From: a virus
Taxonomy: Duplodnaviria > Heunggongvirae > Uroviricota > Caudoviricetes
Reading direction: 5' to 3' (one strand)
IMG/VR virus record: IMGVR_UViG_2721755727_000003
DNA length: 23,561 nt
The position numbers and the translations under genes were made by a program. Of the stretch, positions 1 through 22,325 are shown piece after piece. Below the pieces are notes generated by a model that ran no database searches, was not told the origin of the DNA, and saw nothing but the letters and a program-made list of their open reading frames with translations. Numbering within the stretch: the first letter of the stretch is position 1; each line of letters starts with the position of its first letter.

Positions 1-234
1 ATGAAATCAAAAGACACCCTAAAGTGGTTCCCTGCGCAGCTTCCTGAAGTAAGAATTATCCTAGGGGATGCTGTAGTGGAAGTAGCAAAACAGGGAAGAC
101 CTATCAATACCAGAACATTGCTTGATTACATTGAAGGAAACATAAAGAAAACATCATGGCTGGATAACAAAGAATTATTACAAACAGCGATATCAGTTCT
201 TAAAGACAACCAAAATTTAAATGGTAAAATGTAA
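1..234 (+). CDS. ynaE: Small Rac prophage protein (YdfK/YnaE family, 77 aa); the ATG is the first base of the window
   Basis: 77-aa ORF from the six-frame track; the protein is recognised from memory as the YnaE/YdfK cold-shock-associated paralogue pair. The position upstream of pinR on the same strand matches Rac gene order. Confidence 0.55.
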   Translation: MKSKDTLKWFPAQLPEVRIILGDAVVEVAKQGRPINTRTLLDYIEGNIKKTSWLDNKELLQTAISVLKDNQNLNGKM

Positions 235-550
235 TATAATAAACTTACTTTTTTATCATTTTTCCACTTTAACAACATTTTGCTCCACTTTTCCACGACC
301 AAACAACTTGAAATCTGGTTAAAATAACACGCAACACTATTCTTCTTCCTTGAGTCCGCCCGGAACTCGAAAAACAAACCGAGTTAAAGCCATTTTTCAC
401 AAAATCGATTTTGGGTCTCACCAAAATTACGGGGTTGCATACGCATTCGTTTATTTTCGAACGTGTACATACAAATATGCACAAAAATAATCATAATTAT
501 TTTCTGAGATGCATTATGATATGAACACCAATTTCGTATAGAGTCTCACT

Positions 551-1141
551 ATGTCTCGAATTTTTGCTTACTGTCGGATATCAACGCTGGATCAGACCAC
601 CGAAAATCAACGCCGGGAAATCGAAAGTGCAGGTTTTAAAATCAAACCTCAGCAAATAATCGAAGAACACATTAGCGGCTCAGCAGCAACCAGTGAGCGT
701 CCTGGTTTTAACCGGTTGCTTGCTCGCCTGAAATGTGGTGATCAATTGATTGTGACAAAACTGGATCGCCTTGGTTGTAATGCAATGGATATCAGGAAAA
801 CAGTGGAACAACTGACCGAAACAGGTATCAGAGTGCATTGCTTAGCATTGGGTGGCATTGACCTGACCAGTCCAACAGGAAAAATGATGATGCAAGTAAT
901 TTCAGCAGTCGCTGAATTTGAACGAGACCTTTTACTTGAACGCACTCATTCCGGGATAGTAAGAGCCCGCGGCGCAGGGAAACGTTTTGGTCGACCTCCT
1001 GTGTTAAATGAAGAACAGAAACAGGTGGTATTCGAACGAATTAAGTCAGGTGTAAGTATAAGTGCCATTGCCCGGGAATTCAAAACCTCGCGGCAAACCA
1101 TTTTAAGAGCCAAAGCAAAACTTCAGACACCTGACATATAA
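551..1141 (+). CDS. pinR: Serine recombinase, DNA invertase (Pin/Gin/Hin family), 196 aa
   Basis: N-terminal catalytic serine motif (YCRISTLDQ), resolvase-type fold, C-terminal HTH; ATG at 551; length matches PinR. Confidence 0.93.
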
Positions 1142-1238
1142 AAAATAATCTCGGTGTGAGATGCTTTACGTCTTCCAAGCCCCCTTCCTTGCCGTAAATG
1201 GAAAGATACATCTAATTATAGAATTTATATGTTTTACC

Positions 1239-1814
1239 CTACGGCAGTGCTGGCCATTCAATATCCTGTGCAGTTGACGTATCAACACGGTTCAGCAATA
1301 CCCGATACTTTTTCCATGCTTCCAGCAACGAGATTTCTTCCTCCGTTGCAATTTCCAGATCTGCAGCATCCTGAAGCGGCGCAATATGCTCACTGGCTAC
1401 CTGCATCAGGTTGTTTTTTGTTTCTTCCGCCTCCCGGATCCGGAACAGTTTTTCTGCTTCCGTATCCTTCACCCAGGCTGTGCCGTTCCACTTCTGAAAC
1501 TCCCCTTCCGGCGATAACCAGGTAACATTTTCCGGTAACGGACCGAGTTCAGAAATAAATAACGCGTTGCCGGAAGCCACGTCATAAACCGTTTTACCCC
1601 GATGATCTTCAACGAGATGCCACGATGACTCATCACTGTTGAAAACAGCCACGAAGCCAGCCGGAATATCTGGCGGTGCAATATCGGTACTGTTTGCTGG
1701 CAGACCTGTATGAGGCGGAATATATGCATCACCTTCACCAATAAATTCATTAGTTCCGGCCAGCAGATTATAAATTTTTATGGTCCGTGGTTGTTCACTC
1801 ATTCTGAATGCCAT
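1239..1814 (-). CDS. tfaR: Tail fibre assembly protein, 191 aa
   Basis: Tfa-family sequence ([20 protein letters not shown]...). The ATG (complement of 1812-1814) overlaps the stfR stop codon (complement of 1814-1816). Confidence 0.9.
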
Positions 1815-3163
1815 TATGCAAGCCTCACAATATAGTTAAATGCGATGTTTTTGACGGTGTTTTCCGCGTTACCAGCAGCGTTAACGGTGATGGTGTGTCC
1901 ATGTGAACCAATCGCAACGGAGTGCGTATGAGCACCAATACCGACAGTATGCGCGTGTGCACCTGCGCTTGCAGCAGTGCCGGACAGTGAGTGGGTATGT
2001 GCGCCAGCAGATGATGTTGCATAGTTTTGATTATGCACAACAGACAATCTTGTTGATGCACTACCAGCACCGGAGTTAGCACTAGCCGTGTTCACGTTGG
2101 CTAGTGAGTGTGTGTGTGCTCCAGCCGAGTTTGTAGAGCCGCTCACACTGTGTGTATGTGCCCCGGTGTTATTCGTGGATTTAGTGCCGTAATCAAACGA
2201 CGATGTGGTTTTCGTCCCCAAATCTGTACTGGATGCGCTGGCGCTGTGGGTATGCGATTTAATGCCGTCCTGTTCCTGAGACAATACGGCCCGACCACTG
2301 GCAGGTTTGCCCTTAATCGTCCAGCCACGCATATCAGGGATCACGCCTGACGGATAAGCGGCTGCAAGTTTCGGGTAAGCAGATTTGTCAAAAGCCTGCC
2401 CCTGCATCAGGGCATAACCAGACGGAACGGTATCTGATGGCCACGGGATTGGTGCGCCGACTGGGTAGCTTTCTGGTGGAAGATTTTTCGAGGTATAAAC
2501 TTCTGCCCAGTCTTCCTCAAAACCATAACCGTCTCTTGAAGAACGGTAGAACAGACCACCATTTCTGTAATGCGCCTTCATCTGCAGGGTCCGGCAACTT
2601 CCGACTCCGGTATAGAAGTTAACCAGAATATAGCTGTCGCCAGAGCGGGTGACATTGTAAGCGCCAGATTCGGCATTCCATGGAACGCCACCATCCGCAT
2701 CGGCATATGTATCCGTTGCCCTTCTGGCAAAAGCAGCCACATGCGCGGCGGTTAAAGTAATATCTTTGGAACCATCAAACTCAACACCAGAAACCCGTCT
2801 TGGCGTTTGCAGCTTTGTTGCTGTTAATGCATTACCGTTCAGACTTGCGGACAGTTTGGTTCCAATAACCAGTTCGCCGGTTGCGTTATCAATAGCAAAC
2901 GGTCTTAATGTATTCCAGCCACCATAAACATCACCTTGATTGGTAAGCAGCAGGTAAGTTTTAGCGCCATCATTACGCCATAATGCACCATACTCCCCAC
3001 CTATCATTCGAATCTGATTACCACCACGCGCTACAATTTCGTCTGTGGCAAAAAGTTTTTTGCACGACAAGTTATCGTTAACGATTAACGAATGAGACTC
3101 ATAAAAACCACGCCCACTCTTAAAATCAAGGATAACGTCCGCCGCGATACATTCAGTCGCCGG
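1814..3163 (-). pseudogene. stfR: Side tail fibre gene, 3' segment (about 447 codons), separated from its 5' segment by an IS2 insertion
   Basis: The track ORF 1814..3298 runs 47 codons into IS2. The remaining reading frame joins exactly in phase with the 5' segment once the IS2 and one copy of the 5-bp duplication are removed. C-terminal GAHTHS-type histidine repeats are typical of tail fibre tips. Confidence 0.85.
3159..3163. repeat. IS2 target-site duplication, left copy (GCCGG)
   Basis: GCCGG lies immediately before the IS2 left end and is repeated at 4495..4499 immediately after the right end. Confidence 0.85.
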
Positions 3164-3254
3164 TAGACTGGCCCCCTGAATCTCCAGACAACCAATATCA
3201 CTTAAATAAGTGATAGTCTTAATACTAGTTTTTAGACTAGTCATTGGAGAACAG

Positions 3255-3620
3255 ATGATTGATGTCTTAGGGCCGGAGAAACGCAGACGGCGTACCACAC
3301 AGGAAAAGATCGCAATTGTTCAGCAGAGCTTTGAACCGGGGATGACGGTCTCCCTCGTTGCCCGGCAACATGGTGTAGCAGCCAGCCAGTTATTTCTCTG
3401 GCGTAAGCAATACCAGGAAGGAAGTCTTACTGCTGTCGCCGCCGGAGAACAGGTTGTTCCTGCCTCTGAACTTGCTGCCGCCATGAAGCAGATTAAAGAA
3501 CTCCAGCGCCTGCTCGGCAAGAAAACGATGGAAAATGAACTCCTCAAAGAAGCCGTTGAATATGGACGGGCAAAAAAGTGGATAGCGCACGCGCCCTTAT
3601 TGCCCGGGGATGGGGAGTAA
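3255..3620 (+). CDS. insC: IS2 OrfA (InsC), 121 aa, HTH transposase-regulator
   Basis: ATG at 3255 (the track ORF starts further upstream at 3210 on an alternative start). Protein [24 protein letters not shown]... recognised as IS2 InsC. Confidence 0.88.
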
Positions 3621-4483
3621 GCTTAGTCAGCCGTTGTCTCCGGGTGTCGCGTGCGCAGTTGCACGTCATTCTCAGACGAACCGATGACTGGATGGATGGC
3701 CGCCGCAGTCGTCACACTGATGATACGGATGTGCTTCTCCGTATACACCATGTTATCGGAGAGCTGCCAACGTATGGTTATCGTCGGGTATGGGCGCTGC
3801 TTCGCAGACAGGCAGAACTTGATGGTATGCCTGCGATCAATGCCAAACGTGTTTACCGGATCATGCGCCAGAATGCGCTGTTGCTTGAGCGAAAACCTGC
3901 TGTACCGCCATCGAAACGGGCACATACAGGCAGAGTGGCCGTGAAAGAAAGCAATCAGCGATGGTGCTCTGACGGGTTCGAGTTCTGCTGTGATAACGGA
4001 GAGAGACTGCGTGTCACGTTCGCGCTGGACTGCTGTGATCGTGAGGCACTGCACTGGGCGGTCACTACCGGCGGCTTCAACAGTGAAACAGTACAGGACG
4101 TCATGCTGGGAGCGGTGGAACGCCGCTTCGGCAACGATCTTCCGTCGTCTCCAGTGGAGTGGCTGACGGATAATGGTTCATGCTACCGGGCTAATGAAAC
4201 ACGCCAGTTCGCCCGGATGTTGGGACTTGAACCGAAGAACACGGCGGTGCGGAGTCCGGAGAGTAACGGAATAGCAGAGAGCTTCGTGAAAACGATAAAG
4301 CGTGACTACATCAGTATCATGCCCAAACCAGACGGGTTAACGGCAGCAAAGAACCTTGCAGAGGCGTTCGAGCATTATAACGAATGGCATCCGCATAGTG
4401 CGCTGGGTTATCGCTCGCCACGGGAATATCTGCGGCAGCGGGCTTGTAATGGGTTAAGTGATAACAGATGTCTGGAAATATAG
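3578..4483 (+). CDS. insD: IS2 OrfB (InsD) transposase catalytic domain, 301 aa; normally expressed as an OrfAB fusion by -1 frameshifting
   Basis: DDE-type integrase-core sequence; the GTG at 3578 overlaps the A_AAA_AAG slippery site of insC. Confidence 0.88.
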
Positions 4484-4494
4484 GGGCAAATCCA

Positions 4495-4499
4495 GCCGG
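4495..4499. repeat. IS2 target-site duplication, right copy (GCCGG)
   Basis: Direct repeat of 3159..3163 flanking the IS2. Confidence 0.85.
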
Positions 4500-5107
4500 A
4501 TTTGTTGCCCCAAACTTATAGGTCGTATCATTAACAACGAGATCAGCACCAGGTGCGGATATTGACAGGCCATCTTCAATAAACGCAAAAACAGGGAAAG
4601 CAGCGCCATCAACATAGAACACAGAGCGCAAATCATCGCCCTTATTACTCATCATTATTGAGTGAATGGCTCGTTCATTGTTTTGATATTGCCAGAACAT
4701 GCCATAAGCATAACGCCCCCTGTCAGTCCAGCCACCAGGCATAACAAATCCGTTAAACTCGCAGTTATTCATCGGATCGCCTGCGGTTCGCGTTGCCGTG
4801 GTGATAATGACTCTTGATGCCAGTTCGCTTACTGAGCCAGCAGAACGCATAACAACAACAGGGTAATATTTTCCAGATGTTGCACCTGCAGGAGCGTTAA
4901 CCCGCACATAACGCATACCACGCTTATCAGCAAAGTCTGTTTTACTGACCGCGTTAATGTTGTTCAGGAAGCATCCCTTATCGGGTATATCAGCGCCGTT
5001 CTGGTCTTTCTGCAGACGTTTCTCTGCATTGTCATAGGCTGATTTTACTGCCTTTGGCGTTGCCGCCAGCGTTTCAGACGTACTGTTGGTCGCACTGCTG
5101 AGCTGTA

Positions 5108-6118
5108 CTATCCCCTTTTTCGTCGTACTTGCATCCTCAAGCGCCACGGCGGATGCAATATCCTCTGCCCGTTTAGCTGCTGTCTCGGCGCGCGTTGCCG
5201 CGGATTCCGCCGTACTTTTGCTCTGAGCTGCCGCCGTCGCACTGCCAGCAGCCTCTGTCGCCTTCGTGGATGCCGTCGTGGCGCTGCTCTTCGCTGCTGA
5301 CGCTTGTCTGGTCGCCTCATCTTTTGAAGCAGACGCCGATGATGCCGATGACGCCGCCGAACTGGCTGACGATGCGGCAGCCGTTTTTGAGGATTCTGCG
5401 CTTGTTTCCGACGCTTTCGCGTTCGTTTCGGATGTCTTCGCTGCGGAAGCAGACCTCGCTGCTGCGCTGGCCTGTTCAGTGGCTTCGCCAGCCTTCGTTG
5501 TGGCTGTTGAAGCAGACGATGCGGCGCTTTCTGCCGATTTTCCGGCGGCGGTGGCACTGGCTGAGGCCTGCCCGGCACTTGTTGACGCTGCACTGGCAGA
5601 CGACGCAGCCGCTGTTTTTGAGCCTGCCGCAGCCGAGGCGCTCTGTCCCGCTGCCGTTTCAGAAGACCTGGCGTTCGTCTCGGACGTTTTTGCCGCCTTC
5701 GCGGAATTTCCTGCCGCCGTTGCCGAGGAAGCTGCACTACTGGCGCTTGATGATGCGTTCGTTTCTGATGATTTTGCCGCTTCTTTTGAGGCCGCCGCAT
5801 CCCGGGCCGAGGTCGCAGCTTCTGATGCCTTCGTGGTCGCGGTGGATGCAGATGTGGCTGCTGATTGTAGTGACGCTGAAGCATTCGTTTCTGACGTTTT
5901 CGCCGCACCGGCACTGGTGGCCGCCGCGCTTTTTGAGGACTCTGCAGCGGCAGCACTTTTTGATGCTTCAGTGGCCTTTGTTGATGCCGTTCCTGCGCTG
6001 GAAGACGCTGACTGAGCCGACGACGCGGCCTGTCCGGCTGACGTGCTGGCTGCGCGTGCTGAGTCCGCAGCATCAGCCGCATGGGTTGCCGCCTCACGGG
6101 CTGATGTGCTGGCATCAC
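5108..6118. repeat. Low-complexity Ala/Ser/Thr-rich coding repeats within stfR
   Basis: Reiterated GCN/TCN/ACN codon blocks. These produce the long alternative-frame ORFs in the six-frame track (5108..6118 -, 5195..6289 +, 5266..6015 +). Confidence 0.7.
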
Positions 6119-6523
6119 TGGCTGACTTCTTCGCGGCTGCCGTGTTCTGTGCCACCGCGGACGCGTTACGCGCCACCTCTTCCACCATCAGTTCAAAACG
6201 GCGCAGTGCCTCCGGACGGGCATCATCCTCCGTCATGGCACCGAGAAAATCATTCAGCGTACCGGGTTGAGAATCTTCATACACGGTAATGGTCCCGGCA
6301 TGTGACGGCGGGAATCCTTCCACCAACAGAATAACGCTGTACTGACCGTACTCAACGTCCATGCTGTAACGCCCGGCTTCATCCGGATTTTCTGAGGCCA
6401 GCGTGTTCACCACCACCGTGGTGCTGTTACGTTTTGCTTTCAGCTGGATTGTGCAGTTCTGTACCGGTTTTCCTGTGCCGTCTTTCAGTACACCTGAAAT
6501 CTTTACTGCCATATTCACCCCAC

Positions 6524-6549
6524 AAAAAAGCCCGCCTGAACCGGCGGGC
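6524..6549 (-). terminator. Intrinsic terminator candidate between lomR and stfR
   Basis: Minus strand reads a GC-rich hairpin (AGCCCGCC / GGCGGGCT stem, 6-nt loop) followed directly by TTTTTTGTG; it lies just downstream of the lomR stop. Confidence 0.55.
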
Positions 6550-6576
6550 TGTCATAACACTGTGTTACCTGGCTAA

Positions 6577-6766
6577 TCAGAACTTATAACCGACACCCAC
6601 GATGAAACCGTCAGTGCGCCAGTCGCCACTGCCGGGGCCTTCATAAGCAATATCAATGGCCACGGATTCGGTCGGGTTAAACTGCACGCCAGCTCCCCAC
6701 GCCAGAGACGTGTTGCTGTGGCGACCGTCATCACTTCCGGTCAGCACGTCGTGCGTTTTCCCCTTG
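6577..6766 (-). pseudogene. lomR: lom-family outer membrane protein gene, 3' fragment (GKTHDVLTGSDDGRHS...GVGYKF)
   Basis: C-terminus matches lambda Lom, ending in the beta-barrel terminal F. The track ORF 6577..7038 continues upstream into IS5 sequence. Confidence 0.85.
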
Positions 6767-7962
<1,196 letters not shown>

Positions 7963-8172
7963 CTTGTTGTCAGTTACGCGGAGATAATCCCCGGAGAAAG
8001 TCGACACACGGCTGTAAGCCATACCCGCCATCGCATACGCGCTGAACCATTCATTCACGCGCACAGACGGCCCCACCATCACGCTGAACCAGCGGTTACG
8101 CACGGAATCTTCATGCCAGCGGGTATCGCTGTAACGGGTAAGCTGGCGATTCTTGTCTCCTGCATAGCTGAA
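7963..8172 (-). pseudogene. lomR: lom-family gene, 5' remnant (frame [70 protein letters not shown]); no start codon, N-terminus removed by a deletion
   Basis: My own translation of the minus strand matches lambda Lom residues and continues in phase with the 3' fragment across the IS5 duplication (..TDNK | GKTHD..). Confidence 0.75.
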
Positions 8173-9107
8173 TGGCCGCCCTGCTGCATTAACACCATAA
8201 ATGGCGACTGACCAGTGGACAACCCAACAACAATATCCGTCATTTGTGCAGGCAACATGCGCATAGCAAAAGCCGTTTGTTTTGCCGACATTCCGGTTTT
8301 GCTTAATTGTGATTGAGTAACCTCAAGCTCACTCCGCATAGCACGAAGTTTTCCAGAAAGCTCCTCATACATTTCAGGAGAAAGCATCCCCTTAGCTTTT
8401 GCTTCATTGAGCTGTTTCTGTTGTTCTACCAGACGATTAAAAGCAGTTCCGACAGGATCAAGTTGAGCAATCAGACGTTGCAAAGCAACAACCTGTTCAT
8501 CATGCGCTTTTGCTGCTTCTCGCTCTGCCTGAGCCTCTCCGGTAAGCTCTCGCCGTGTTTCCTGTATTTTTCGGCTATAATTCTCAAACTGAGAACCATT
8601 TATTTTCCCGGATGCAAACGCAGCATTAAGTTCATCATGCTGTTGTTCAAGATTTCTTAGCGCCGCAGCCAGAGGGTCGATCTTGTCCAGCATTCTTTGA
8701 AAGGCCTGAGCCTGCGCTTCCTGCTGAGCGGCAGCAAGTTTTCCGGCCTTCTCGGCTTCTCTCTGCGCTTGCGCAACCCCGCTCAATTCCTCTGTGGTTT
8801 CATTAAGTTTACGGACAAGAAATTCATATTCTTCTTTATCAATAAGCCCTTTATCGAAAAATTTCTTTAATTCAGAATAGCGTCGACCGACAGTATCAAT
8901 TGCGGCACCAACTGGATCAATAGCTGCTTTTAATTTTGCGAGCGCGTTCTTCTCATCTTCTGTTGCCTTAGTCACTTTCCCTGCGCTATTTGCAGCAGTT
9001 TCCCCAGCCTGCGTCATTTTGACTAATGAGGAGGTCAGATTGTCAGCATTATTTTTCGCTCCAGTGCTATCAATAATTATTGCGAGACGCGAGGTTTGCT
9101 CTGCCAT
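8079..9107 (-). CDS. tmpR: Truncated tail tape-measure protein (lambda H-like N-terminal portion); the last ~31 codons are an out-of-frame read-through into the lom remnant
   Basis: Coiled-coil-rich N-terminus and the motif [31 protein letters not shown] resembling lambda gpH; ATG is the complement of 9105-9107, preceded by AGGAG. Confidence 0.75.
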
Positions 9108-9122
9108 TTATTAAAACTCCTG

Positions 9123-9152
9123 ACAACAAAAAACCCACCGCGAAGTGGGTTT
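9123..9152 (-). terminator. Intrinsic terminator candidate immediately upstream of tmpR
   Basis: Minus strand reads AAACCCAC-TTCGCG-GTGGGTTT followed by TTTGTTGTC, ending about 15 nt before the tmpR RBS. Confidence 0.55.
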
Positions 9153-9272
9153 CAGGCGACATAATAGTAGATATAGCGATTACGAGGCCACGCAATGCTT
9201 TTCTCCAGGAGCATCATCGATTTAATTAAAGACACCATCACATCTCTGTAACAGAGTGTACGTAATTAACAA

Positions 9273-9593
9273 CTACACACACTGCTCCTGAAAATACTGG
9301 TCATCCAGTGCAAAGATCACTGCTTCAAATTCATCGCGCTCAATCAATACCGGATGAGTGGCTAAATATTCATTTATCTCTGTCAGAGATAAAGGCAAAG
9401 GCACCCCAGCCATTCCAGCATAACGTCGGGCACGGGATATTACCGAATAGGCGTACAACAACTCCTTAAGCACCGGGTCTATTTCTGGTTCCGGTATCGG
9501 TGGCAACCTGAGTTTTTCTCGCTTCCATCTTGCCTTTTCCCCCCTTTCTCCCCCGAACTCCGATAACCACCGCTGGGCAGCTATGGCTTTTTT
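9273..9593 (-). CDS. -1 frame extension downstream of ydaY (about 104 codons after the slip site); candidate T-part of a G/GT-type tail assembly chaperone fusion
   Basis: Frame is open from 9617 to the stop at 9273-9275 and has no in-frame ATG or GTG before the TTG at 9506. It is entered from the ydaY frame by a -1 shift at A_AAA_AAG (9593..9587, minus strand). It lies directly upstream of the tape-measure gene. Confidence 0.4.
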   Translation of the reverse strand, partial: KKAIAAQRWLSEFGGERGEKARWKREKLRLPPIPEPEIDPVLKELLYAYSVISRARRYAGMAGVPLPLSLTEINEYLATHPVLIERDEFEAVIFALDDQYFQEQCV

Positions 9594-9940
9594 ATCGTAT
9601 CCTGCTTCTGCTGCTCTTTACCCTGGGCGATGCTGGCTGCTTCTGCAAGGATCTGCCAGTACAACTCTGGATTCTGCTTAAGCAGCGCGATCCCTCGTTC
9701 TGCCGTATATTCCAGTGCAACCTCAACACCATTAACCAGTTCACCAACCCCTTTCCAGTCTTTCAGCAGATAACGAGCGGCATTATCAATGAGTAAATCA
9801 TCAACAGAATCCACCTCGGAAACCTTTGAAATATCAAACTCCTTCGTTCCGACGTGCAAACTGGCATCCATTTTCTCAATGTGGCGACGGATTAATGCAT
9901 TACGGGAGCGATACTGATCGTTATCGCTGCTTCTGCTCAT
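9581..9940 (-). CDS. ydaY: Rac prophage protein YdaY (119 aa in the zero frame); candidate G-like tail assembly chaperone
   Basis: ATG is the complement of 9938-9940; the ORF ends ..QDTIKKP with the slippery heptamer three codons before the stop. The start overlaps the ynaK 3' end by 20 bp. Confidence 0.7.
   Translation of the reverse strand: MSRSSDNDQYRSRNALIRRHIEKMDASLHVGTKEFDISKVSEVDSVDDLLIDNAARYLLKDWKGVGELVNGVEVALEYTAERGIALLKQNPELYWQILAEAASIAQGKEQQKQDTIKKP
9587..9593 (-). other. Candidate programmed -1 ribosomal frameshift site (A_AAA_AAG) with an SD-like AGGA 6 nt upstream
   Basis: Minus strand reads GCAGAAGCAGGATACGAT-AAAAAAG-CCATAG. The heptamer is in the zero frame of ydaY (AAA AAG codons) and is identical to the known IS2 slippery site at 3572..3578 in this same window. 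Confidence 0.45.
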
Positions 9941-10184
9941 CCGTCAGGCCAGACAGAACAATGACCGGAACAGAATCCATTTTGAGCATTTCAGCCGCCA
10001 TAACACGACCGTGACCCGCAATAATTTCGCCCTTTTCGTCAATCAGCACCGGATTAGTCCAGCCGAATTGCTTAATACTTTCTACCAGTTGTGCCACCTG
10101 CTCAGTACTGTGCGTCCTGGCGTTGTGCGCATACGGTGACAATTCTTGTAATGGGCGATAGACTATCTTTAATTTCTCGCTCAT
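9921..10184 (-). CDS. ynaK: ParB-like nuclease domain protein, 87 aa
   Basis: Protein MSEKLKIVYRPLQELSPYAHNARTHSTEQ... with ParB/Srx-type N-terminal motif; ATG is the complement of 10182-10184. Confidence 0.8.
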   Translation of the reverse strand: MSEKLKIVYRPLQELSPYAHNARTHSTEQVAQLVESIKQFGWTNPVLIDEKGEIIAGHGRVMAAEMLKMDSVPVIVLSGLTDEQKQR

Positions 10185-10321
10185 ACAGCCTTGCTTTATG
10201 AATAAAACGCACCCCAGCAGCCAGTGCTACTGGGGACGGAGGTGTTGCTGGTAAAGTTAGGTATTGGATCAATGAGTGAGTCAACATAATATTAAACTCA
10301 CAATTATAAATCAGCCATATA

Positions 10322-11779
10322 TTAGGAGCGCCAAAAAAAACCTGAAAACAATATAATAACAGGATAAATTTCAAGGCGACCAAGAATCATAGCTATGCAC
10401 ATTAAGCATTTTGCAATGTCATTAAGCACTCCGAATGACGATGCAGTAGCCCCAAAACCTAATCCCATATTATTAATACATGCAGCCACTGTTGCAAATG
10501 ATGTAAGAAAATCATATCCCATACCATTTAACACCAGTATAAAAAACACCGTGAAGAGAGTATAAAGAAAAAAGAAACTCCATACAGACCTCATTACACG
10601 ATCTGTAACTATCTTCCCTCCTACATTTACACTCAACAACGCTCTGGGATGAGAAAGCTGATTTATCTCGTGTTTGCTTTGTTTGAAAAGTATAAGAAAT
10701 CGAAGTGACTTAATTCCACCACAAGTTGAACCTATACATCCCCCAAAGAAACTTGACAACAGCAAAAACACTATCGTGTGCGTGGGCCAACTTGCATAAT
10801 CCTGCGTAGCTAAACCATTATCAGTGAGCATGGAGCTGGCAAGAAAAAACGAATGAATAAAACTTCCATGCAAGTCATACATACCTATATGCCAGACCTG
10901 GAAAGAGGTAACAATGATCACCCCTAAGGCTATTAACAGAAAGAAACGAAGTTCAATATCTCTGATTAAAGGTTTTATCGTTTTCCTGCTAATAACAATA
11001 TACCAAAGAGTGAAGTTGAAAGCCGATAGCAGGGAAAAAGAACCAGCCACCAGCTCAACCAAATAGTTATTAAAATATCCGATACTCTCGCTATGAGTTG
11101 AGAAACCACCAAGCGAAACTGTGGAAATCCCGTGACAAATAGCATCAAACAAAGGCATTCCTGCAAGTCTATAACAGACAATACAAGCAATACCTAATAA
11201 AGAATAAGTTATCCACAGTGTCCGTGACGTATCGGCCAGGCGGGGAGTGAGTTTGTCATCCTTAAATGGCCCCGGCATTTCTGACTGATAAAGCTTTGCA
11301 CCACCAATACCCAATAATGGCAATACAGCAACCGCCAGAACAATAACTCCTAAACCACCTATAAAATTTAACTGTGACCGATAGTACAAATATGCCCGAG
11401 GTAATGAACTAACATCATCAATTACAGTTGCTCCTGTTGTTGTTATTCCAGAAACCCCTTCAAACAGAGCATCAATGAACGTTAAATTAAGTTCTGAGTC
11501 AATCCATAAAGGGAATGCACTAATAACAGAAAACAAAATCCAAAACATTACAATTATAATAAACCCATCACGGGTACGTAATTGAATGCCAGATTTCTTA
11601 GTTGTATACCACGCTCCGCCACCAATGCAAAAAAATATAACGAAAGTTATAAAGAAAACAAACAGGCTTTTTTCTTTATAAAACAATGCTACAACCATTG
11701 GTGGCAACATTGAAAGACTATAGAGCCAAACCAGGAACCCACACATATGAGTAACAACTCTTACATGAGATGTATTCAT
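10322..11779 (-). CDS. trkG: TrkH-family potassium uptake membrane protein, 485 aa; A+T-rich cargo gene
   Basis: Polytopic membrane protein beginning MNTSHVRVVTHMCGFLVWLYSLSM; ATG is the complement of 11777-11779 (the track ORF starts six codons upstream on TTG). Visibly A+T-rich compared with its neighbours. Confidence 0.9.
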   Translation of the reverse strand: MNTSHVRVVTHMCGFLVWLYSLSMLPPMVVALFYKEKSLFVFFITFVIFFCIGGGAWYTTKKSGIQLRTRDGFIIIVMFWILFSVISAFPLWIDSELNLTFIDALFEGVSGITTTGATVIDDVSSLPRAYLYYRSQLNFIGGLGVIVLAVAVLPLLGIGGAKLYQSEMPGPFKDDKLTPRLADTSRTLWITYSLLGIACIVCYRLAGMPLFDAICHGISTVSLGGFSTHSESIGYFNNYLVELVAGSFSLLSAFNFTLWYIVISRKTIKPLIRDIELRFFLLIALGVIIVTSFQVWHIGMYDLHGSFIHSFFLASSMLTDNGLATQDYASWPTHTIVFLLLSSFFGGCIGSTCGGIKSLRFLILFKQSKHEINQLSHPRALLSVNVGGKIVTDRVMRSVWSFFFLYTLFTVFFILVLNGMGYDFLTSFATVAACINNMGLGFGATASSFGVLNDIAKCLMCIAMILGRLEIYPVIILFSGFFWRS

Positions 11780-11916
11780 ATCTAAATATTCTTTCAATTA
11801 TAACCACCTTGCTGCAATATTATGATTATACTGTATAAAATTTAACTCCTCTTAGATCTTACTTCACTGTTCCTTATGAAACAATCATCAAAATGAATCA
11901 TATTGTAGTTAAGATT

Positions 11917-12390
11917 TTACTTTAAACACTGCTCGGTTATGTATTGCTGAGCACCTTCAAGTTGGGCCTGCATCATTACCAGTCGTTCCCGGAGGGTGAA
12001 ATAATCCCGTTCAGCGGTGTCTGCCAGTCGGGGGGAGGCTGCATTATCCACGCCGGAGGCGGTGGTGGCTTCACGCACTGACTGACAGACTGCTTTGATG
12101 TGCAACCGACGACGACCAGCGGCAACATCATCACGCAGAGCATCATTTTCAGCTTTCGCATCAGCTAACTCCTTCGTGTATTTTGCATCGAGCGCAGCAA
12201 CATCACGCTGACGCATCTGCATCTCAGTAATTGCCGCGTTCGCCAGCTTCAGTTCTCTGGCATTTTTGTCGCGCTGTTCTTTGTAGGCGATGGCGTTATC
12301 ACGGTAATGATTAACACCCCATGACAGGCAGACGACGATGCAGATAACCAGAGCGGAGATACCGATGCTGCTTTCGGCTCTGCTGGTAAA
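11917..12390 (-). pseudogene. rzpR: Rz-like spanin gene remnant: frame open from 12390 but the first ATG is at 12222, so the N-terminal start is missing
   Basis: My translation gives ..[58 protein letters not shown].., matching lambda Rz, with no in-frame start upstream of the transmembrane segment. Confidence 0.75.
11976..12161 (-). CDS. rzoR: Rz1-like outer-membrane lipoprotein (o-spanin), 61 aa, embedded in the +1 frame of the Rz remnant
   Basis: Lipobox-type signal (..LPLVVVGC) and a proline-rich mature region; embedded-gene arrangement as in lambda Rz/Rz1. Confidence 0.82.
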
Positions 12391-12860
12391 TTATCGCCCG
12401 GTATGCAGTAACGAAATTTACCGCCCTGATTTACGCGAATCAGACGACCTTTGCTGATTGCCATTGCCAGCGTTGAAGCCACTTTGCGTGATGTGGTACC
12501 AAACAATGTAGCCAGCTCATCAGCCGTTTGTGGTCCTCGTTGTTCAATCGTCGCGGTTAAATCGCACTCTGAGATTTTCGCTACTGTTGCTGTGGTGATT
12601 TCTTCCGGCAGTTCTGCCTGCGCTGGCTGTTCCTGCTGAACATTGTTATCAGCCACACGCCAGGTGTACGCGCTTTTATCAACAAAACCAGCCTTTTTCA
12701 GTTCCCATAGTTCGTTCAGCACTTCTTCACGACTGATATCAAGTCGCGCAGCAAGTTCTATGGATGTGGCTTTTCCCATTGCTTTCAGTGCGTCAAAAAC
12801 AGTCTCCATTAAATTTTTCTCCCGGTAAAAATTACTTCGCAATTCCTGGCTGGACGACAT
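12249..12860 (-). CDS. ydaW: Rac prophage protein YdaW; only about the first 160 codons appear native, the 3' end is an out-of-frame read-through of Rz sequence (deletion fusion)
   Basis: 203-aa ORF, ATG is the complement of 12858-12860, overlapping the ydaV 3' end. The C-terminal ~45 residues are encoded by DNA that in another frame encodes the Rz N-terminus. Confidence 0.7.
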
Positions 12861-13578
12861 TCGGACGCCAGCTCTCCCAGTTAAAATTCACCCATCGCCC
12901 GCCGTTCATGGTCATGCGATCCATAATCCGCTCGCCGAGCAATGTTTTCATGGCCTCATAGTTCAGGTTTGTCAGCATCCCCACGCTGCGCATCGACGCT
13001 GTCCGGCGATCAACAATCTGGTGCAGTACCACCTGCTCGTTTTTCGTCTCGCGCTGAATGCCAATTTCATCAAGAACCAGCAGATCCACTTCGCACAGTT
13101 CCCGCAAAAATTTTTCGCCTGACTGCCCATCGTCATAGCTGGCGTGCAGGGCACTCATAACATCAGCCACGGTAACCACAATCACTGTCTGACCGTCTTT
13201 CAGCAGGCGATTCCCGATAGCTGCCGCTAAGTGGTTCTTCCCGGTACCAGGTTTTCCGCTGAACGCAAAATTTGTACACCCGGTCATCAGTTCATCAGCG
13301 ATGGATTTCGCCTGACTCAACGCGTATCGCTGCCCTTCGTTCTGCACCTGGTAATTCGAAAACGAGCATTTGCGGTGCAATGGCTGGATGCCAGAGCGAT
13401 TCAGAATTTTTTCCACCCGCAACTGACGATTCTGACGGTTGATCTCCTCACAACGTTTCTGGCCTTCGGAAAGTTGCCACTCGCGCCACTCCGCTACCGT
13501 CTTGAATGGCGCGGTTACATGTGACGGGGCCAGTCTGCGGATACGTTCAAGAACATCGCCTGTCGCAATATTTTTCAT
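12832..13578 (-). CDS. ydaV: DnaC/IstB-like AAA+ replication helicase-loader protein, 248 aa
   Basis: Walker [11 protein letters not shown] and Walker [10 protein letters not shown]; its position after the O-like gene. Confidence 0.9.
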
Positions 13579-13584
13579 GGTCAG

Positions 13585-14442
13585 TTACCCCCTGAAGCCT
13601 GGCGGGATCGCACTATCCGGTAACGAGACGGTGTTAACCTGTCGGAGTAACGTCTCAGGTCGAACACCTTTCGGCGCGAACAAGCCCTGGTATTCATTGG
13701 CGATGCTGTGTCGAATCACCTGCTCAGGTGAAAAACCCTGCTGGCGGAATTTTTCCAGCTCCCGTATCGCCCCGTTAGCGCCCTGCTCCGTTCGAATCGG
13801 TTTTCGCAATGCCTGGCGAAATTCAACCCACTCACGCCAAAGCGAGACAGAAATCCAGTTCGGCAAAGTAATATCCAGAGGGTCAAACTTTTTGACACCT
13901 CGATTCCCCCGGGGGGGATTTAGGGGGGGATCTGTTTTTAGATCTTTATCTGTATCTTTATTAGTTGCCTTTGTGTTGACATCATGTTCAAACACCACTT
14001 CAACATCTGTTTGAACACCTGTTAAATTTCTCTCTTGTTTTGTTTGAACATCTGCTTCCTTTCTGCTTCTTCTGGCCTGAACAGATGCTTTTCCTGCGGC
14101 TGATTTTTTGGTTAATTTTTCCCTGACTGATGCCAGATCTTCCTCAATCCGAAGATGCACCCATTCCTCGCCGTTATCGCAAAAAAACTCCTGCAAGGAT
14201 GGTTCAACATCAGCCCATCGCTCGTTAGTCAGACGGGCAATTTTTGCCAGCCTGTTTTTAGGTATTGGCTTTCCTGTTTGCCAGTAATTGAACATCAGCA
14301 ACAAATACGCACCATGCTCCTCTGCTGACAAATGCATGGTGTCAGCCAGGTAATCAGCTATGTACAGTTGCATGTATGGTAATGCGGCCATAATTGCCCC
14401 GTATGATGCTGCCCGGTGGCTTAGAATAAGCACAAACAGCAT
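13585..14442 (-). CDS. ydaU: Replication initiation protein (lambda O-like role), 285 aa; contains the iteron-like cluster
   Basis: 285-aa ORF, ATG is the complement of 14440-14442, position upstream of the DnaC-like gene; the middle of the gene carries iterons, an AT-rich stretch and G7 tracts. Confidence 0.85.
   Translation of the reverse strand: MLFVLILSHRAASYGAIMAALPYMQLYIADYLADTMHLSAEEHGAYLLLMFNYWQTGKPIPKNRLAKIARLTNERWADVEPSLQEFFCDNGEEWVHLRIEEDLASVREKLTKKSAAGKASVQARRSRKEADVQTKQERNLTGVQTDVEVVFEHDVNTKATNKDTDKDLKTDPPLNPPRGNRGVKKFDPLDITLPNWISVSLWREWVEFRQALRKPIRTEQGANGAIRELEKFRQQGFSPEQVIRHSIANEYQGLFAPKGVRPETLLRQVNTVSLPDSAIPPGFRG
13882..14055. repeat. Iteron-like repeat cluster with adjacent AT-rich stretch and two G7 homopolymers (candidate prophage origin inside ydaU)
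   Basis: ATGTTCAAACACC (13984..13996), CTGTTTGAACACC (14007..14019), TGTTTGAACATC (14041..14052); palindrome GTCAAACTTTTTGAC (13882..13896); G7 at 13911..13917 and 13923..13929; AT-rich 13931..13980. Confidence 0.45.
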
Positions 14443-14454
14443 GGAAACTTTTGC

Positions 14455-14877
14455 TTAATGAACAATGACAGAATCGTCGGAAGAACCGCCGCCGCTGAAA
14501 TGCGCTTTCCGGTAAACGGCTTGGACTGCATCATCATGCGCATCAATTGCCGTACTTAACGCTTCCTGCGCCGCCAGTAATGCACGGCGTTCCAGGGTAT
14601 CGAAGATGCAGAGTCGGTGACGCAGCTCGCGCGGAAGGATTGCCAGAATTGCTGGGATCAGCTTCTGAATTTTTTCTCTTTGCGTTTTCGTTTCACCTTT
14701 CAACCAACGGTGATAGATATTCTGCTGATTGTTCCAGTCCTTGCCTGGAACCAGGGGCAATTCGCCGCCCCCCTGGCGCAGATATTCTTCAGTAATTGCA
14801 TTGGCTACCCATGCCTGCCCTTTTTCGGCTGCTAGGGCAAACAACACTGATTCGATGTGCTCATGCTTGATTTTCAT
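14455..14877 (-). CDS. ydaT: Rac prophage protein YdaT, 140 aa (cII-position gene of the rightward-type operon)
   Basis: 140-aa ORF immediately downstream of ydaS on the same strand; ATG is the complement of 14875-14877. Confidence 0.88.
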   Translation of the reverse strand: MKIKHEHIESVLFALAAEKGQAWVANAITEEYLRQGGGELPLVPGKDWNNQQNIYHRWLKGETKTQREKIQKLIPAILAILPRELRHRLCIFDTLERRALLAAQEALSTAIDAHDDAVQAVYRKAHFSGGGSSDDSVIVH

Positions 14878-14899
14878 GAATCATTTGCCTCTTGATGTT

Positions 14900-15196
14900 T
14901 CAGGTATGATCAAATGAGGATTTGTTACTGTCATTTAGTTGCTTCACTGACATATTCTGCGAACAACATGCCGAACGTCGTAAATATGACCAGTCAATAT
15001 CAGGACGAAGTTCTTCGCACAGAACCTCACCTCTTGTTGCACGTTCAATTGCTGGACATCTCTCGGCAGGCAATTGACGTACCCCTTTGATCCATTGATT
15101 TACGCTTGGAGGTGATACACCTAAAAGCCTAGCCATTGCTGATTGCCCACCGACAACAGCACAAGCTTGCTTGAATGAATAGTTCTCTTTTTTCAT
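14900..15196 (-). CDS. ydaS: Cro-like HTH (XRE-family) regulator, 98 aa
   Basis: HTH motif (QSAMARLLGVSPPSVNQWIKG); divergent from racR; GGAG RBS about 9 nt upstream of the ATG. Confidence 0.88.
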   Translation of the reverse strand: MKKENYSFKQACAVVGGQSAMARLLGVSPPSVNQWIKGVRQLPAERCPAIERATRGEVLCEELRPDIDWSYLRRSACCSQNMSVKQLNDSNKSSFDHT

Positions 15197-15222
15197 CGAA
15201 TGAACTCCAAAAACACACAGAA

Positions 15223-15267
15223 ATATTAGGCGACGCCTAACGCAATTGTCAATAGGCTGTGCCTAAT
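15223..15267 (-). promoter_or_regulatory. ydaS promoter (PR-like) with two palindromic candidate RacR operators
   Basis: On the minus strand: -35 TTGACA (complement of 15247..15252), 18-bp spacer, -10 TAATAT (complement of 15223..15228). Operators TTAGGCGACGCCTAA (15226..15240, perfect palindrome) and ATAGGCTGTGCCTAAT (15252..15267). Confidence 0.55.
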
Positions 15268-15319
15268 GCAGTAAGGGTAGGGATTGCCTAATGTAATGCG
15301 CATAGGAGAATATTAAGCA

Positions 15320-15796
15320 ATGCTTAGTGGTAAAGACTTAGGCCGAGCGATAGAGCAGGCCATTAACAAAAAAATCGCATCGGGATCCGTCAAATCAAAG
15401 GCGGAGGTCGCACGCCACTTTAAAGTCCAACCACCATCAATTTATGACTGGATTAAGAAAGGCTCTATAAGTAAAGATAAACTTCCAGAATTATGGCGTT
15501 TCTTTTCTGATGTTGTTGGTCCAGAGCATTGGGGGCTTAACGAATACCCCATACCAACCCCCACCAATTCAGATACAAAAAGTGAACTTTTAGATATAAA
15601 CAACCTTTATCAAGCAGCCTCTGATGAAATAAGAGCGATTGTAGCTTTCCTGTTATCTGGAAATGCTACAGAACCAGATTGGGTTGACCACGATGTTCGC
15701 GCCTACATAGCAGCGATGGAAATGAAAGTGGGTAAGTATCTGAAAGCTCTTGAATCTGAACGGAAAAGCCAGAACATCACAAAAACTGGAACTTAA
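15320..15796 (+). CDS. racR: Prophage repressor (CI-like), 158 aa
   Basis: HTH near the N-terminus (KAEVARHFKVQPPSIYDWIKKG); flanked on both sides by operator-like palindromes; divergent from ydaS. Confidence 0.9.
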   Translation: MLSGKDLGRAIEQAINKKIASGSVKSKAEVARHFKVQPPSIYDWIKKGSISKDKLPELWRFFSDVVGPEHWGLNEYPIPTPTNSDTKSELLDINNLYQAASDEIRAIVAFLLSGNATEPDWVDHDVRAYIAAMEMKVGKYLKALESERKSQNITKTGT

Positions 15797-15891
15797 ACTT
15801 ATATGGTCTGACGGAAAACTCCTGGATTCCGTTATTTAACCCCCCCATCACTTTCTGCTGTCGCCATCACCTATTAGGTTACGCTCAAAAC

Positions 15892-15935
15892 ATTAGGCAT
15901 AGCCTATTGACAATCAATTAGGCATTACCTATAGT
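15892..15935 (+). promoter_or_regulatory. PL-like promoter downstream of racR with candidate RacR operators
   Basis: -35 TTGACA (15907..15912), 17-bp spacer, -10 TATAGT (15930..15935). Operators ATTAGGCATAGCCTAT (15892..15907) and ATTAGGCATTACCTAT (15917..15932). The 13-bp block GCCTATTGACAAT is shared, inverted, with the ydaS promoter. Confidence 0.5.
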
Positions 15936-16104
15936 TCCAGCATACCACCCACCCCGCCCCACAGAACGCCGGGCAATACTTCGAGTTACCAGGCAGTGGT
16001 AAGGGGTTAAGTAGCCAGCCCGAGGCGTATGAACATGACGGCGGGATTCAAATTTTGCAGTGCAGCAGTTAGTTCCGCCACCCGGCGTTAAGGGGAGAGA
16101 TAAG

Positions 16105-16239
16105 ATGGTGCATTACGAAGTAGTTCAGTATTTGATGGATTGTTGCGGTATCACTTACAACCAGGCTGTGCAGGCTTTACGCAGCAACGACTGGGATCTC
16201 TGGCAGGCAGAAGTCGCTATACGTAGCAACAAGATGTGA
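16105..16239 (+). CDS. ydaG: Small Rac prophage protein, 44 aa
   Basis: ATG at 16105 preceded by AAGGGGAGAG; the ORF is below the track's length cut-off and was found by manual translation (MVHYEVVQYLMDCCGITYNQAVQALRSNDWDLWQAEVAIRSNKM). Confidence 0.7.
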   Translation: MVHYEVVQYLMDCCGITYNQAVQALRSNDWDLWQAEVAIRSNKM

Positions 16240-16249
16240 GATTCGCAAA

Positions 16250-16405
16250 ATGCAAAAAATCGACCTCGGCAACAACGAATCCCTGGTGTGCGGCGTGTTC
16301 CCCAACCAGGATGGAACGTTCACTGCCATGACGTATACCAAAAGCAAAACATTTAAAACCGAAACTGGTGCGCGCCGATGGTTGGAGAAGCACACAGTAA
16401 GCTAA
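16250..16405 (+). CDS. ydaF: Small Rac prophage protein, 51 aa
   Basis: Manual translation MQKIDLGNNESLVCGVFPNQDGTFTAMTYTKSKTFKTETGARRWLEKHTVS; its stop overlaps the convergent sieB stop by 4 bp. Confidence 0.7.
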   Translation: MQKIDLGNNESLVCGVFPNQDGTFTAMTYTKSKTFKTETGARRWLEKHTVS

Positions 16406-16890
16406 CGATTAAAACGTCTACTCCTGCTGTTCCAGAATAACTTCATAAAATGGGAGTATTTTTCGGTGACGAGATAATAAGAACAGTTTGCGCTATCACT
16501 CTGATGTTGAATGATGCCCTTCCGTTCTAATTTTTTCATAACCGGGTTACGGCAAGGAGAAGTGATAATAAGATTTCCTGTTTTAAGGAAATCTTTAAAT
16601 ACAGCGATTTCTTTCTCAGATAAACGAAGCAATACTCGTTGCTCTGGTAGTAATGAATAATGCTTTTGAATATGTGCTCGCAATCTTGAGAAGGAAATGG
16701 CGACCACGAAAGAAAAGGCAAAAACGATAATCTGAAAGAGCCAAGGTATTTCAGTATAAGCATTGAATGCGACAGTAAACTCTTTCGGTATCAGCCAGAG
16801 AGTGAGACCAAAAATGATAATCGTATACATAAGTCTTTCGAGTGGCTCGTTAGCAAAAAGTTTCAACAATGGAGTAAATACATCCAACAT
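16402..16890 (-). CDS. sieB: Superinfection exclusion protein B (membrane protein), 162 aa
   Basis: Protein MLDVFTPLLKLFANEPLERLMYTIIIFGLTLWLIPKEF... recognised as SieB; an in-frame upstream ATG at 17013 would add 41 codons (203-aa track ORF). Confidence 0.82.
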   Translation of the reverse strand: MLDVFTPLLKLFANEPLERLMYTIIIFGLTLWLIPKEFTVAFNAYTEIPWLFQIIVFAFSFVVAISFSRLRAHIQKHYSLLPEQRVLLRLSEKEIAVFKDFLKTGNLIITSPCRNPVMKKLERKGIIQHQSDSANCSYYLVTEKYSHFMKLFWNSRSRRFNR

Positions 16891-17108
16891 ATCAATAACT
16901 CTCAACTGTAAGGGTATTGAAATGTTAACACAAGCTCTCGCTGTAGGGGTATAGCCGAGACCACCGAAGCCCGGAGGTGGTGAAATAAAACCGGGCACAA
17001 CACGAAGGCGCATTTCCGATATCCATAAAGAGTCGGTCTTGTCTGTTAAATTTAAATGGTGGGAGTGCGCCTCCGGTTGTAAATAACGACATTGCTGTGT
17101 GTAGTCCT

Positions 17109-17158
17109 GGCGGCATCAGTTTTTTTCTTGAAGTTCGGCTGATGTCCGCCCTTTTTAA
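17109..17158 (+). terminator. Terminator-like inverted repeat upstream of kilR
   Basis: GGCGGCATCAG (17109..17119) and CTGATGTCCGCC (17139..17150) form an ~11-bp stem around a 19-nt loop, followed by CTTTTTAAA. Confidence 0.35.
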
Positions 17159-17331
17159 AGTGAATTTTGTGATGCGGTGAATGCGGCTAAGCGCACGTGG
17201 CACAGTTAAAAGTCATGTTAGTCCTTATTGGTTTGGGTGGGAAAGCCGACTGTAATTGTTAACTGGTTGCAGTCACCTGGAGGCACCAGACACCGCATCA
17301 ACAAAGTTCATTTGTAAAAATGGAGATAATT

Positions 17332-17553
17332 ATGATTGCACATCACTTCGGAACTGATGAAATACCACGTCAGTGTGTGACTCCTGGCGATTATGTTCTT
17401 CATGAAGGCCGGACATATATTGCCTCGGCAAACAATATTAAAAAGCGAAAACTATATATTCGTAACCTGACCACAAAAACATTCATTACTGACCGCATGA
17501 TTAAAGTCTTCCTCGGTCGTGATGGTTTACCTGTAAAGGCGGAGTCATGGTGA
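17332..17553 (+). CDS. kilR: Cell-division inhibitor (kil protein), 73 aa
   Basis: Protein [35 protein letters not shown]...; GGAG 6 nt upstream; the stop overlaps the ydaE start. Confidence 0.88.
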
Positions 17554-17723
17554 TGACTAAGAAAATAAAATGTGCTTACCACCTTTGCAAAAAAGACGTT
17601 GAAGAAAGCAAAGCTATTGAAAGAATGCTTCACTTCATGCACGGGATTTTATCAAAAGACGAACCGAGAAAATATTGCAGTGAAGCTTGTGCCGAAAAAG
17701 ACCAGATGGCACATGAACTTTAA
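17553..17723 (+). CDS. ydaE: Small cysteine-rich protein (putative zinc-binding), 56 aa
   Basis: Manual translation [56 protein letters not shown]; the start is translationally coupled to the kilR stop (TGATG overlap). Confidence 0.7.
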   Translation: MTKKIKCAYHLCKKDVEESKAIERMLHFMHGILSKDEPRKYCSEACAEKDQMAHEL

Positions 17724-17797
17724 TTAATTGACTATTCGAAACTGAATTTATGCCAGAAATGGCAGGTATTCGCTCAACCTTAATTAAGGAGAAAAAC

Positions 17798-18073
17798 ATG
17801 ATTACCAATTATGAAGCCACTGTTGTAACTACCGATGACATTGTTCACGAGGTGAATCTGGAAGGAAAGCGCATTGGCTACGTAATTAAAACAGAAAATA
17901 AAGAAACCCCATTCACTGTGGTTGATATCGATGGTCCATCAGGCAACGTAAAAACACTTGATGAAGGTGTCAAAAAAATGTGCCTGGTGCATATCGGAAA
18001 GAATCTGCCCGCAGAAAAAAAAGCCGAATTTCTGGCAACTCTAATTGCAATGAAATTAAAAGGTGAAATCTGA
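17798..18073 (+). CDS. racC: Rac prophage protein RacC, 91 aa
   Basis: AAGGAG RBS then ATG at 17798 (the track ORF starts further upstream at 17750). Confidence 0.82.
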   Translation: MITNYEATVVTTDDIVHEVNLEGKRIGYVIKTENKETPFTVVDIDGPSGNVKTLDEGVKKMCLVHIGKNLPAEKKAEFLATLIAMKLKGEI

Positions 18074-18078
18074 AAGAA

Positions 18079-18103
18079 ATAGCCTGCGTATGGCGCAGGC
18101 TAT
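18079..18103. other. Perfect 10-bp inverted repeat (hairpin) between racC and recE
   Basis: ATAGCCTGCG-TATGG-CGCAGGCTAT, starting 6 nt after the racC stop. Confidence 0.5.
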
Positions 18104-18174
18104 GAACAGTGTGTATCCGGCAAGATCATTCACTGAACAAAACGAATTTTAATCTGAGTTGAGGTTAAAAAACA

Positions 18175-20775: not shown

Positions 20776-21577
20776 GCAACCACCAATCGCAAAAGCCGAT
20801 CTGCAAAAAACTCAGGGAAACCGTGCACCAGCAGCAGTTAAAAATAGCGACGTGATTAGTTTTATTAACCAGCCATCAATGAAAGAGCAACTGGCAGCAG
20901 CTCTTCCACGCCATATGACGGCTGAACGTATGATCCGTATCGCCACCACAGAAATTCGTAAAGTTCCGGCGTTAGGAAACTGTGACACTATGAGTTTTGT
21001 CAGTGCGATCGTACAGTGTTCACAGCTCGGACTTGAGCCAGGTAGCGCCCTCGGTCATGCATATTTACTGCCTTTTGGTAATAAAAACGAAAAGAGCGGT
21101 AAAAAGAACGTTCAGCTAATCATTGGCTATCGCGGCATGATTGATCTGGCTCGCCGTTCTGGTCAAATCGCCAGCCTGTCAGCCCGTGTTGTCCGTGAAG
21201 GTGACGAGTTTAGCTTCGAATTTGGCCTTGATGAAAAGTTAATACACCGCCCGGGAGAAAACGAAGATGCCCCGGTTACCCACGTCTATGCTGTCGCAAG
21301 ACTGAAAGACGGAGGTACTCAGTTTGAAGTTATGACGCGCAAACAGATTGAGCTGGTGCGCAGCCTGAGTAAAGCTGGTAATAACGGGCCGTGGGTAACT
21401 CACTGGGAAGAAATGGCAAAGAAAACGGCTATTCGTCGCCTGTTCAAATATTTGCCCGTATCAATTGAGATCCAGCGTGCAGTATCAATGGATGAAAAGG
21501 AACCACTGACAATCGATCCTGCAGATTCCTCTGTATTAACCGGGGAATACAGTGTAATCGATAATTCAGAGGAATAA
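20768..21577 (+). CDS. recT: RecT single-strand annealing protein, 269 aa
   Basis: ATG at 20768 inside the recE 3' end (the track ORF starts further upstream at 20711); RecT family sequence. Confidence 0.95.
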
Positions 21578-21633
21578 TTCAGCCTGGCGGTGTAATGCAC
21601 CGCCAACTTGAAATATTTTTTATGAGAAAAATT

Positions 21634-21828
21634 ATGAGATATGACAATGTTAAACCATGTCCATTTTGTGGTTGTCCATCAGTAACGGTGAAAGCCATTT
21701 CAGGATATTACCGAGCGAAGTGTAACGGATGCGAATCCCGAACCGGTTATGGTGGAAGTGAAAAAGAAGCACTCGAAAGATGGAATAAACGAACCACTGG
21801 AAATAATAATGGAGGTGTTCATGTATAA
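21634..21828 (+). CDS. ralR: Restriction-alleviation protein Lar / RalR (reported toxin of a type I toxin-antitoxin pair), 64 aa
   Basis: Cys-rich protein MRYDNVKPCPFCGCPSVTVKAISGYYRAKCNGCE...; ATG at 21634 (in-frame alternatives at 21622 and 21595). Confidence 0.8.
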   Translation: MRYDNVKPCPFCGCPSVTVKAISGYYRAKCNGCESRTGYGGSEKEALERWNKRTTGNNNGGVHV

Positions 21829-22030
21829 AATTACCGCCACTATTGAAAAGGAAGGTGGCACTCCTACTAACTGGACAAGATATTCAAAATCTAAACTAAC
21901 GAAATCAGAATGCGAAAAAATGCTCTCAGGTAAAAAAGAAGCAGGCGTTTCCAGAGAGCAGAAAGTAAAACTGATAAATTTTAATTGCGAGAAACTTCAG
22001 TCCTCGAGAATTGCATTGTATTCAAATTAA
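21821..22030 (+). CDS. ydaC: Rac prophage protein YdaC, 69 aa
   Basis: GGAGG 5 nt upstream of the ATG at 21821; the start overlaps the ralR stop. Confidence 0.7.
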   Translation: MYKITATIEKEGGTPTNWTRYSKSKLTKSECEKMLSGKKEAGVSREQKVKLINFNCEKLQSSRIALYSN

Positions 22031-22108
22031 AACTTCATAGCTGATTATTAATAATCAACATCGGGCGTCAATTTCAGTCTAACATTGGCGCCTGCCAGAG
22101 GTGATGCG

Positions 22109-22324: not shown

Positions 22325-22325
22325 T

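Follow-up and report, generated by a model that had tools for sequence, protein, structure and literature searches.

The DNA analysed here (hereafter the window) is a stretch of 23,561 bp held as IMG/VR virus record IMGVR_UViG_2721755727_000003. It is the Rac cryptic prophage of Escherichia coli, from ynaE to intR, reversed with respect to strain MG1655 and in a K-12 background otherwise identical to that of MG1655. Gene order in the flanks of the locus described below (ynaA, lomR::IS5Y, stfR, tfaR, pinR) is that of the MG1655 reference NC_000913.3, in which stfR (b1372, 1429049..1432411), a homologue of the lambda side tail fibre gene stf, lies intact between lomR and tfaR with a reading frame of 1120 aa. 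In the window, stfR is split by a complete copy of the insertion sequence IS2 (Table 1). A first-pass annotation, made from the letters of the sequence, had named stfR as the host gene and given it as an intact 1120-aa gene in MG1655, and both points are borne out by the alignment and the reference annotation. According to the MG1655 annotation, Rac was already defective: IS5 disrupts lomR, and most of the late genes are missing. IS5Y splits lomR at window 6767..7962, exactly as in MG1655, and the prophage thus carries two late genes disrupted by insertion sequences (lomR and stfR), some 2.3 kb apart.

As reference for the alignment we used NC_000913.3 1408000..1436000 with its annotation. Comparison with K-12 references, which the first-pass annotation had proposed as a check, returned an empty site in MG1655 and perfect flanks: the two blocks on either side of the element align over their whole length with no gap, and share exactly 5 bp of the reference, 1431062..1431066. 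Because both flanks are identical, gapless and overlap by just these 5 bp, IS2 and one copy of the repeat are the only difference from MG1655; with the two removed, the window is 100% identical over 22,230 bp to NC_000913.3 1412000..1434224.

Direct reading of the window and a script agree that GCCGG brackets the 1331-bp element on both sides, and the extent of the element and its flanking repeats given in the first-pass annotation proved correct to the base. At the left edge GCCGG is followed by TAGACTGGCCCCC..., while at the right edge ...GGGGCAAATCCA, ending at 4494, is followed by the second GCCGG. The match between the flanks extends over exactly 5 bp and fails at 6 bp or more, and identity of two 5-bp flanks would be expected about once in 1,024 cases by chance. 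GCCGG, given here as it reads on the plus strand of the window, occurs singly at the corresponding place in the reference, where it covers stfR codons 672/673; the insertion point falls after nucleotide 2018 of the stfR coding sequence. Once 3164..4499 is deleted, a single frame on the minus strand stays open for 1122 codons, starting at an in-frame GTG at 6518, so that the claim that stfR resumes in phase holds, with the earlier count of 674 + 1 + 447 codons taken from that GTG. Counted from the annotated ATG at 6512, in silico removal of IS2 and one repeat gives 672 codons before the one that is split (673) and 447 after it, a total of 1120 aa.

The element itself is identical at 1331/1331 positions to each of the six MG1655 copies (IS2A, IS2D, IS2F, IS2H, IS2I and IS2K), with which it also shares its inverted repeats, insC/insD layout and A6G site. 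Its termini, compared by script, form imperfect inverted repeats; the 42-bp length of the left repeat follows published work (PMC3299598). The product of insC scores 276 bits against the NCBIfam IS2 TnpA model (cut-off 229) and that of insD 728 bits against the IS2 TnpB model (cut-off 597). A −1 fusion at the A6G site gives an open OrfAB frame of 409 aa and 46.4 kDa, in line with the A6G motif and 46-kDa OrfAB transposase described for IS2 (PMC3219604). Sequence identity, inverted repeats, overlapping reading frames with the A6G motif, HTH and rve domains and a 5-bp duplication together place the element in IS2 of the IS3 family, as first proposed. As far as sequence can show, this copy is complete and would be competent for transposition. 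Its genes lie on the plus strand and stfR on the minus strand, which is the opposed orientation noted originally.

Duplications of 5 bp flank five of the six MG1655 copies as well (ATTAC, GGGTT, GCCAC, GTTAT and CCTTG) and have no motif in common. The exception among these copies is IS2H (NC_000913.3 2996361..2997691), with AAGTT on one side and ATAAA on the other, a mismatch that an earlier rearrangement involving two IS2 copies, or a deletion next to the element, could account for.

Table 1. Features of the interrupted stfR locus and alignment of the window to MG1655 (NC_000913.3).
Feature	Window position	Strand	Basis or correspondence
Left aligned block	1..3163		NC_000913.3 1434224..1431062; 100%, gapless (alignment)
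Right aligned block	4495..23561		NC_000913.3 1431066..1412000; 100%, gapless (alignment)
tfaR, tail fibre assembly gene, intact, downstream of stfR	1239..1814	−	MG1655 alignment; Pfam Caudo_TAP
stfR 3′ part, codons 672–1120 and stop, including one copy of the duplication	1814..3163	−	100% to NC_000913.3 1431062..1432411
Chimeric ORF, 476 aa: 27 residues from antisense IS2 left end, then StfR 672–1120	1814..3244	−	ORF reading
Target-site duplication, left copy, GCCGG	3159..3163	.	NC_000913.3 1431062..1431066
IS2, complete, 1331 bp	3164..4494	+	1331/1331 identity to six MG1655 copies
IRL, about 42 bp, starts TAGACTGG	3164..3205	+	Imperfect match to reverse complement of right end
insC (orfA), 121 aa, IS2 repressor TnpA	3255..3620	+	NCBIfam NF006928; Pfam HTH_Tnp_1
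A6G slippery site, programmed −1 frameshift for OrfAB	3572..3578	+	Motif in sequence
insD (orfB), 301 aa, catalytic part with integrase core	3578..4483	+	NCBIfam NF006918; Pfam rve, rve_3, HTH_21
IRR, 41 bp, ends ...AAATCCA	4454..4494	+	Exact match to published 41-bp IRR oligonucleotide (PMC3219604)
Target-site duplication, right copy, GCCGG	4495..4499	.	Sequence and MG1655 alignment
Truncated-product ORF, 731 aa: StfR 1–673, then 58 residues from antisense IS2 right end	4317..6512	−	ORF reading
stfR 5′ part, codons 1–672 and 2 nt of 673, including the other copy of the duplication	4495..6512	−	100% to NC_000913.3 1429049..1431066

When 5,426 complete RefSeq E. coli genomes were searched, using the region as a whole as well as 300-bp queries across each junction, neither the interrupted arrangement nor either junction was found, in keeping with the earlier suggestion of a strain-specific insertion, which has to be qualified by the two NCBI records of the left junction described below. 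The site is uninterrupted in 1,370 of these genomes, and its reconstruction without IS2 agrees with stfR at 800/800 bases in MG1655, C600, DH5alpha and J53 as well as in many further K-12 records; MC4100, too, was among the matches listed for the RefSeq E. coli searches, without the junction. A single record, HCM-22C-2, reached 80% coverage and was set aside, its match consisting of three pieces joined over 2.7 kb in a different arrangement. Exact scans for both junctions found neither in the GTDB species representatives or the JGI metagenomes, and our literature search returned no paper describing IS2 in stfR, a gene that appeared there only in lists of deleted genes.

An exact-protein look-up of the 476-aa ORF across the left junction gave two identical entries, APQ21722.1 and CAM3293380.1, both deposited as 'Phage Tail Collar Domain protein', the first on a contig of 4,792,200 bp and the other on a contig of 3,054 bp. 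The 3,054-bp draft contig of GCA_965136455.1 corresponds to window 854..3907, left junction included, and differs by three Ns. The left-junction allele is thus already in public records and is not unique to the window.

These records bear on whether the insertion could be an artefact of assembly, with an IS2 repeat misplaced into stfR. The element is multi-copy, with six identical copies in MG1655, repeats commonly cause misjoins, and the junctions are in no complete RefSeq genome. A misjoin, however, would neither make a perfect 5-bp duplication nor leave sequence identical to the reference once the element is removed; moreover, the same left junction stands in a separate draft assembly (GCA_965136455.1), and a protein in GenBank, encoded on a contig of 4.79 Mb, reads across it. 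We therefore regard misassembly as exceedingly improbable.

The right junction has a different record. Neither its product (731 or 733 aa, depending on the start) nor a 494-aa C-terminal product with a GTG start has an exact match in protein records. A 397-aa product with an internal start is on record, and was rejected on inspection of its contigs, which are frameshifted empty-site loci, a contig that stops short of the site, or the assembly with ISEc48 described below. When the peptide across the right junction was used as query, all matches were IS2 read-out chimeras with no relation to this locus (best 160 bits, 56% coverage), a weak negative given that the database was clustered at 90% identity. 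As the left-junction product is on record and the right-junction product is absent, the genome that encodes APQ21722.1 may depart from the window on the upstream side of IS2, for example by a substitution, a different start call or a rearrangement mediated by IS2.

That at least two NCBI records have the left junction in common could also mean that the insertion is old and was inherited throughout a lineage, rather than being a recent event in one strain. Against this, neither junction occurs in any of the complete RefSeq genomes, many of which keep the site intact, and not one substitution separates IS2, the duplication or the 22.2 kb of flank from MG1655. An old, lineage-wide insertion is accordingly highly unlikely in our judgement. 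The same zero divergence fits the first-pass description of the insertion as recent, and suggests that it took place a short, undated time ago.

A further possibility is that stfR is a hot spot for insertion sequences, perhaps under selection, and that the carriers represent independent events. ISEc48, a different element of the IS3 family, adjoins stfR just 77 bp from the IS2 site in another assembly (GCA_958318525.1, CATSRJ010000102.1, 1..173, at window 3086), so that stfR has been struck by more than one insertion sequence, in different strains. The mutator-like phenotype reported for loss of tfaR (PMC12549603) would offer a conceivable selective route, by way of polarity. Identity to the exact base, including orientation and duplication, nevertheless follows more simply from common descent; the targets of IS2 conform to no strict consensus, as the unrelated duplications in MG1655 illustrate, and rarity across genomes counts against a hot spot. 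Recurrent insertion is in our view very unlikely, and common descent within a laboratory stock is the simpler reading, whether the alternative is recurrence or selection.

The full-length 1120-aa frame of stfR is interrupted in the window. The 5′ part keeps the Pfam phage_tail_N domain (residues 1–134), and the 3′ part, the distal half of the fibre, keeps Gp34_trimer, gp37_C, Collar and Phage_fiber. Once split, the 5′ piece (StfR 1–673 plus 58 IS2-derived residues) would be without the distal, receptor-binding half and the 3′ piece would be promoterless. In the window stfR is accordingly a pseudogene, from which no full-length fibre can be made.

Antisense frames stay open across both edges of IS2 (4317..4494 and 3164..3244, minus strand). 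At the left edge, an ATG at 3244, inside the element, lies by chance in the reading frame of the stfR 3′ part. A scan for promoters and terminators over 1100..7100 gave counts no higher than in shuffled sequence, and found no consensus promoter directed from IS2 toward the 3′ part; for this reason we treat the 476-aa chimeric ORF as a probable annotation artefact and not as a gene. Hundreds of deposited 'proteins' are likewise read-outs of the IS2 right end fused to unrelated host genes (fimbrial, porin, adhesin and others) and named after the host part. The 731-aa and 476-aa read-outs should not be named as proteins, a caution that comes late for the second of them, which has already been deposited under its collar-domain name.

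The start of tfaR overlaps the stfR stop codon. IS2 may be polar on tfaR and lower its expression; stfR and tfaR have been treated as one operon in a 2025 study in which deletion of tfaR in W3110 raised the frequency of nalidixic-acid-resistant mutants 78-fold, a mutator-like phenotype (PMC12549603). If that report holds, a phenotype could plausibly arise here through polarity of IS2 on tfaR and in no other way. A strong terminator-like hairpin (6529..6550, minus strand) of eight pairs, seven of them G-C, followed by a run of T, separates the lomR fragment from the stfR ATG at 6512, which suggests that little transcription would enter stfR from upstream, with or without IS2. Since Rac is already defective, with lomR::IS5 and most late genes absent, a slight phenotype is to be expected, and the likely outcome of the insertion is a neutral or near-neutral loss of function. 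The contrary view, to which we give very little credence, is that the insertion is not neutral: either tfaR is silenced by polarity or the 476-aa chimera and tfaR are expressed, and the allele has been selected or has recurred, a history that would account for several assemblies carrying it.

The insertion almost certainly arose when IS2 transposed from a resident copy of an MG1655-type K-12 chromosome into stfR of the cryptic Rac prophage, and no feature of the sequence speaks against this. What is visible in the sequence is the end product: a complete IS2, a 5-bp duplication and a target that is unoccupied in MG1655. For the steps that led to it, we infer the copy-out, paste-in route through figure-of-eight and minicircle that has been described for IS2 (PMC3299598, PMC3219604). 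OrfAB, made by −1 frameshifting at the A6G site, would have generated a figure-of-eight from the donor copy, which host replication would have turned into a minicircle. The abutted IS2 ends would then have attacked the target symmetrically with a stagger of 5 bp, leaving flanking direct repeats at the new site and the donor copy in place. Being identical, the six MG1655 copies are indistinguishable as donors. The transposition is rare among sequenced genomes and specific to a strain, it knocks out a gene within a cryptic prophage, and its mechanism is textbook.

Set beside the six IS2 copies of MG1655, the one in the window differs in location only, stfR being a seventh site that is unoccupied in MG1655. 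Comparable events are familiar in K-12: lomR::IS5Y, ydbA::IS2D/IS30C, yaiX::IS2A, yqiG::IS2I and, in W3110, rcsC::IS2 (PMC10652928) likewise consist of a complete insertion sequence with a short duplication between two pseudogene fragments. Those insertions, however, are fixed in reference strains and annotated, whereas stfR::IS2 was absent from the complete RefSeq E. coli genomes searched. The two halves of stfR in the window are together 100% identical to Rac stfR of MG1655 and carry the same domains (phage_tail_N; Gp34_trimer, gp37_C and Collar), but are parted at codon 672/673.

The insertion is an ordinary strain-specific mutation that reveals no new biology, and its uses are practical. 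In the annotation of this strain stfR should be called a pseudogene, and the target at NC_000913.3 1431062..1431066 provides a clean marker for the lineage of a K-12 sub-stock. For phage biology, lambda and Rac are known to exchange stf/tfa by recombination (PMC3945230), and such recombination would now meet IS2 in this region. With the insertion, Rac no longer has an intact side tail fibre gene to offer to lambdoid phages; neither this effect nor a possible reduction of tfaR expression is expected to be large. The event also serves to remind us that laboratory strains continue to harbour active IS2.
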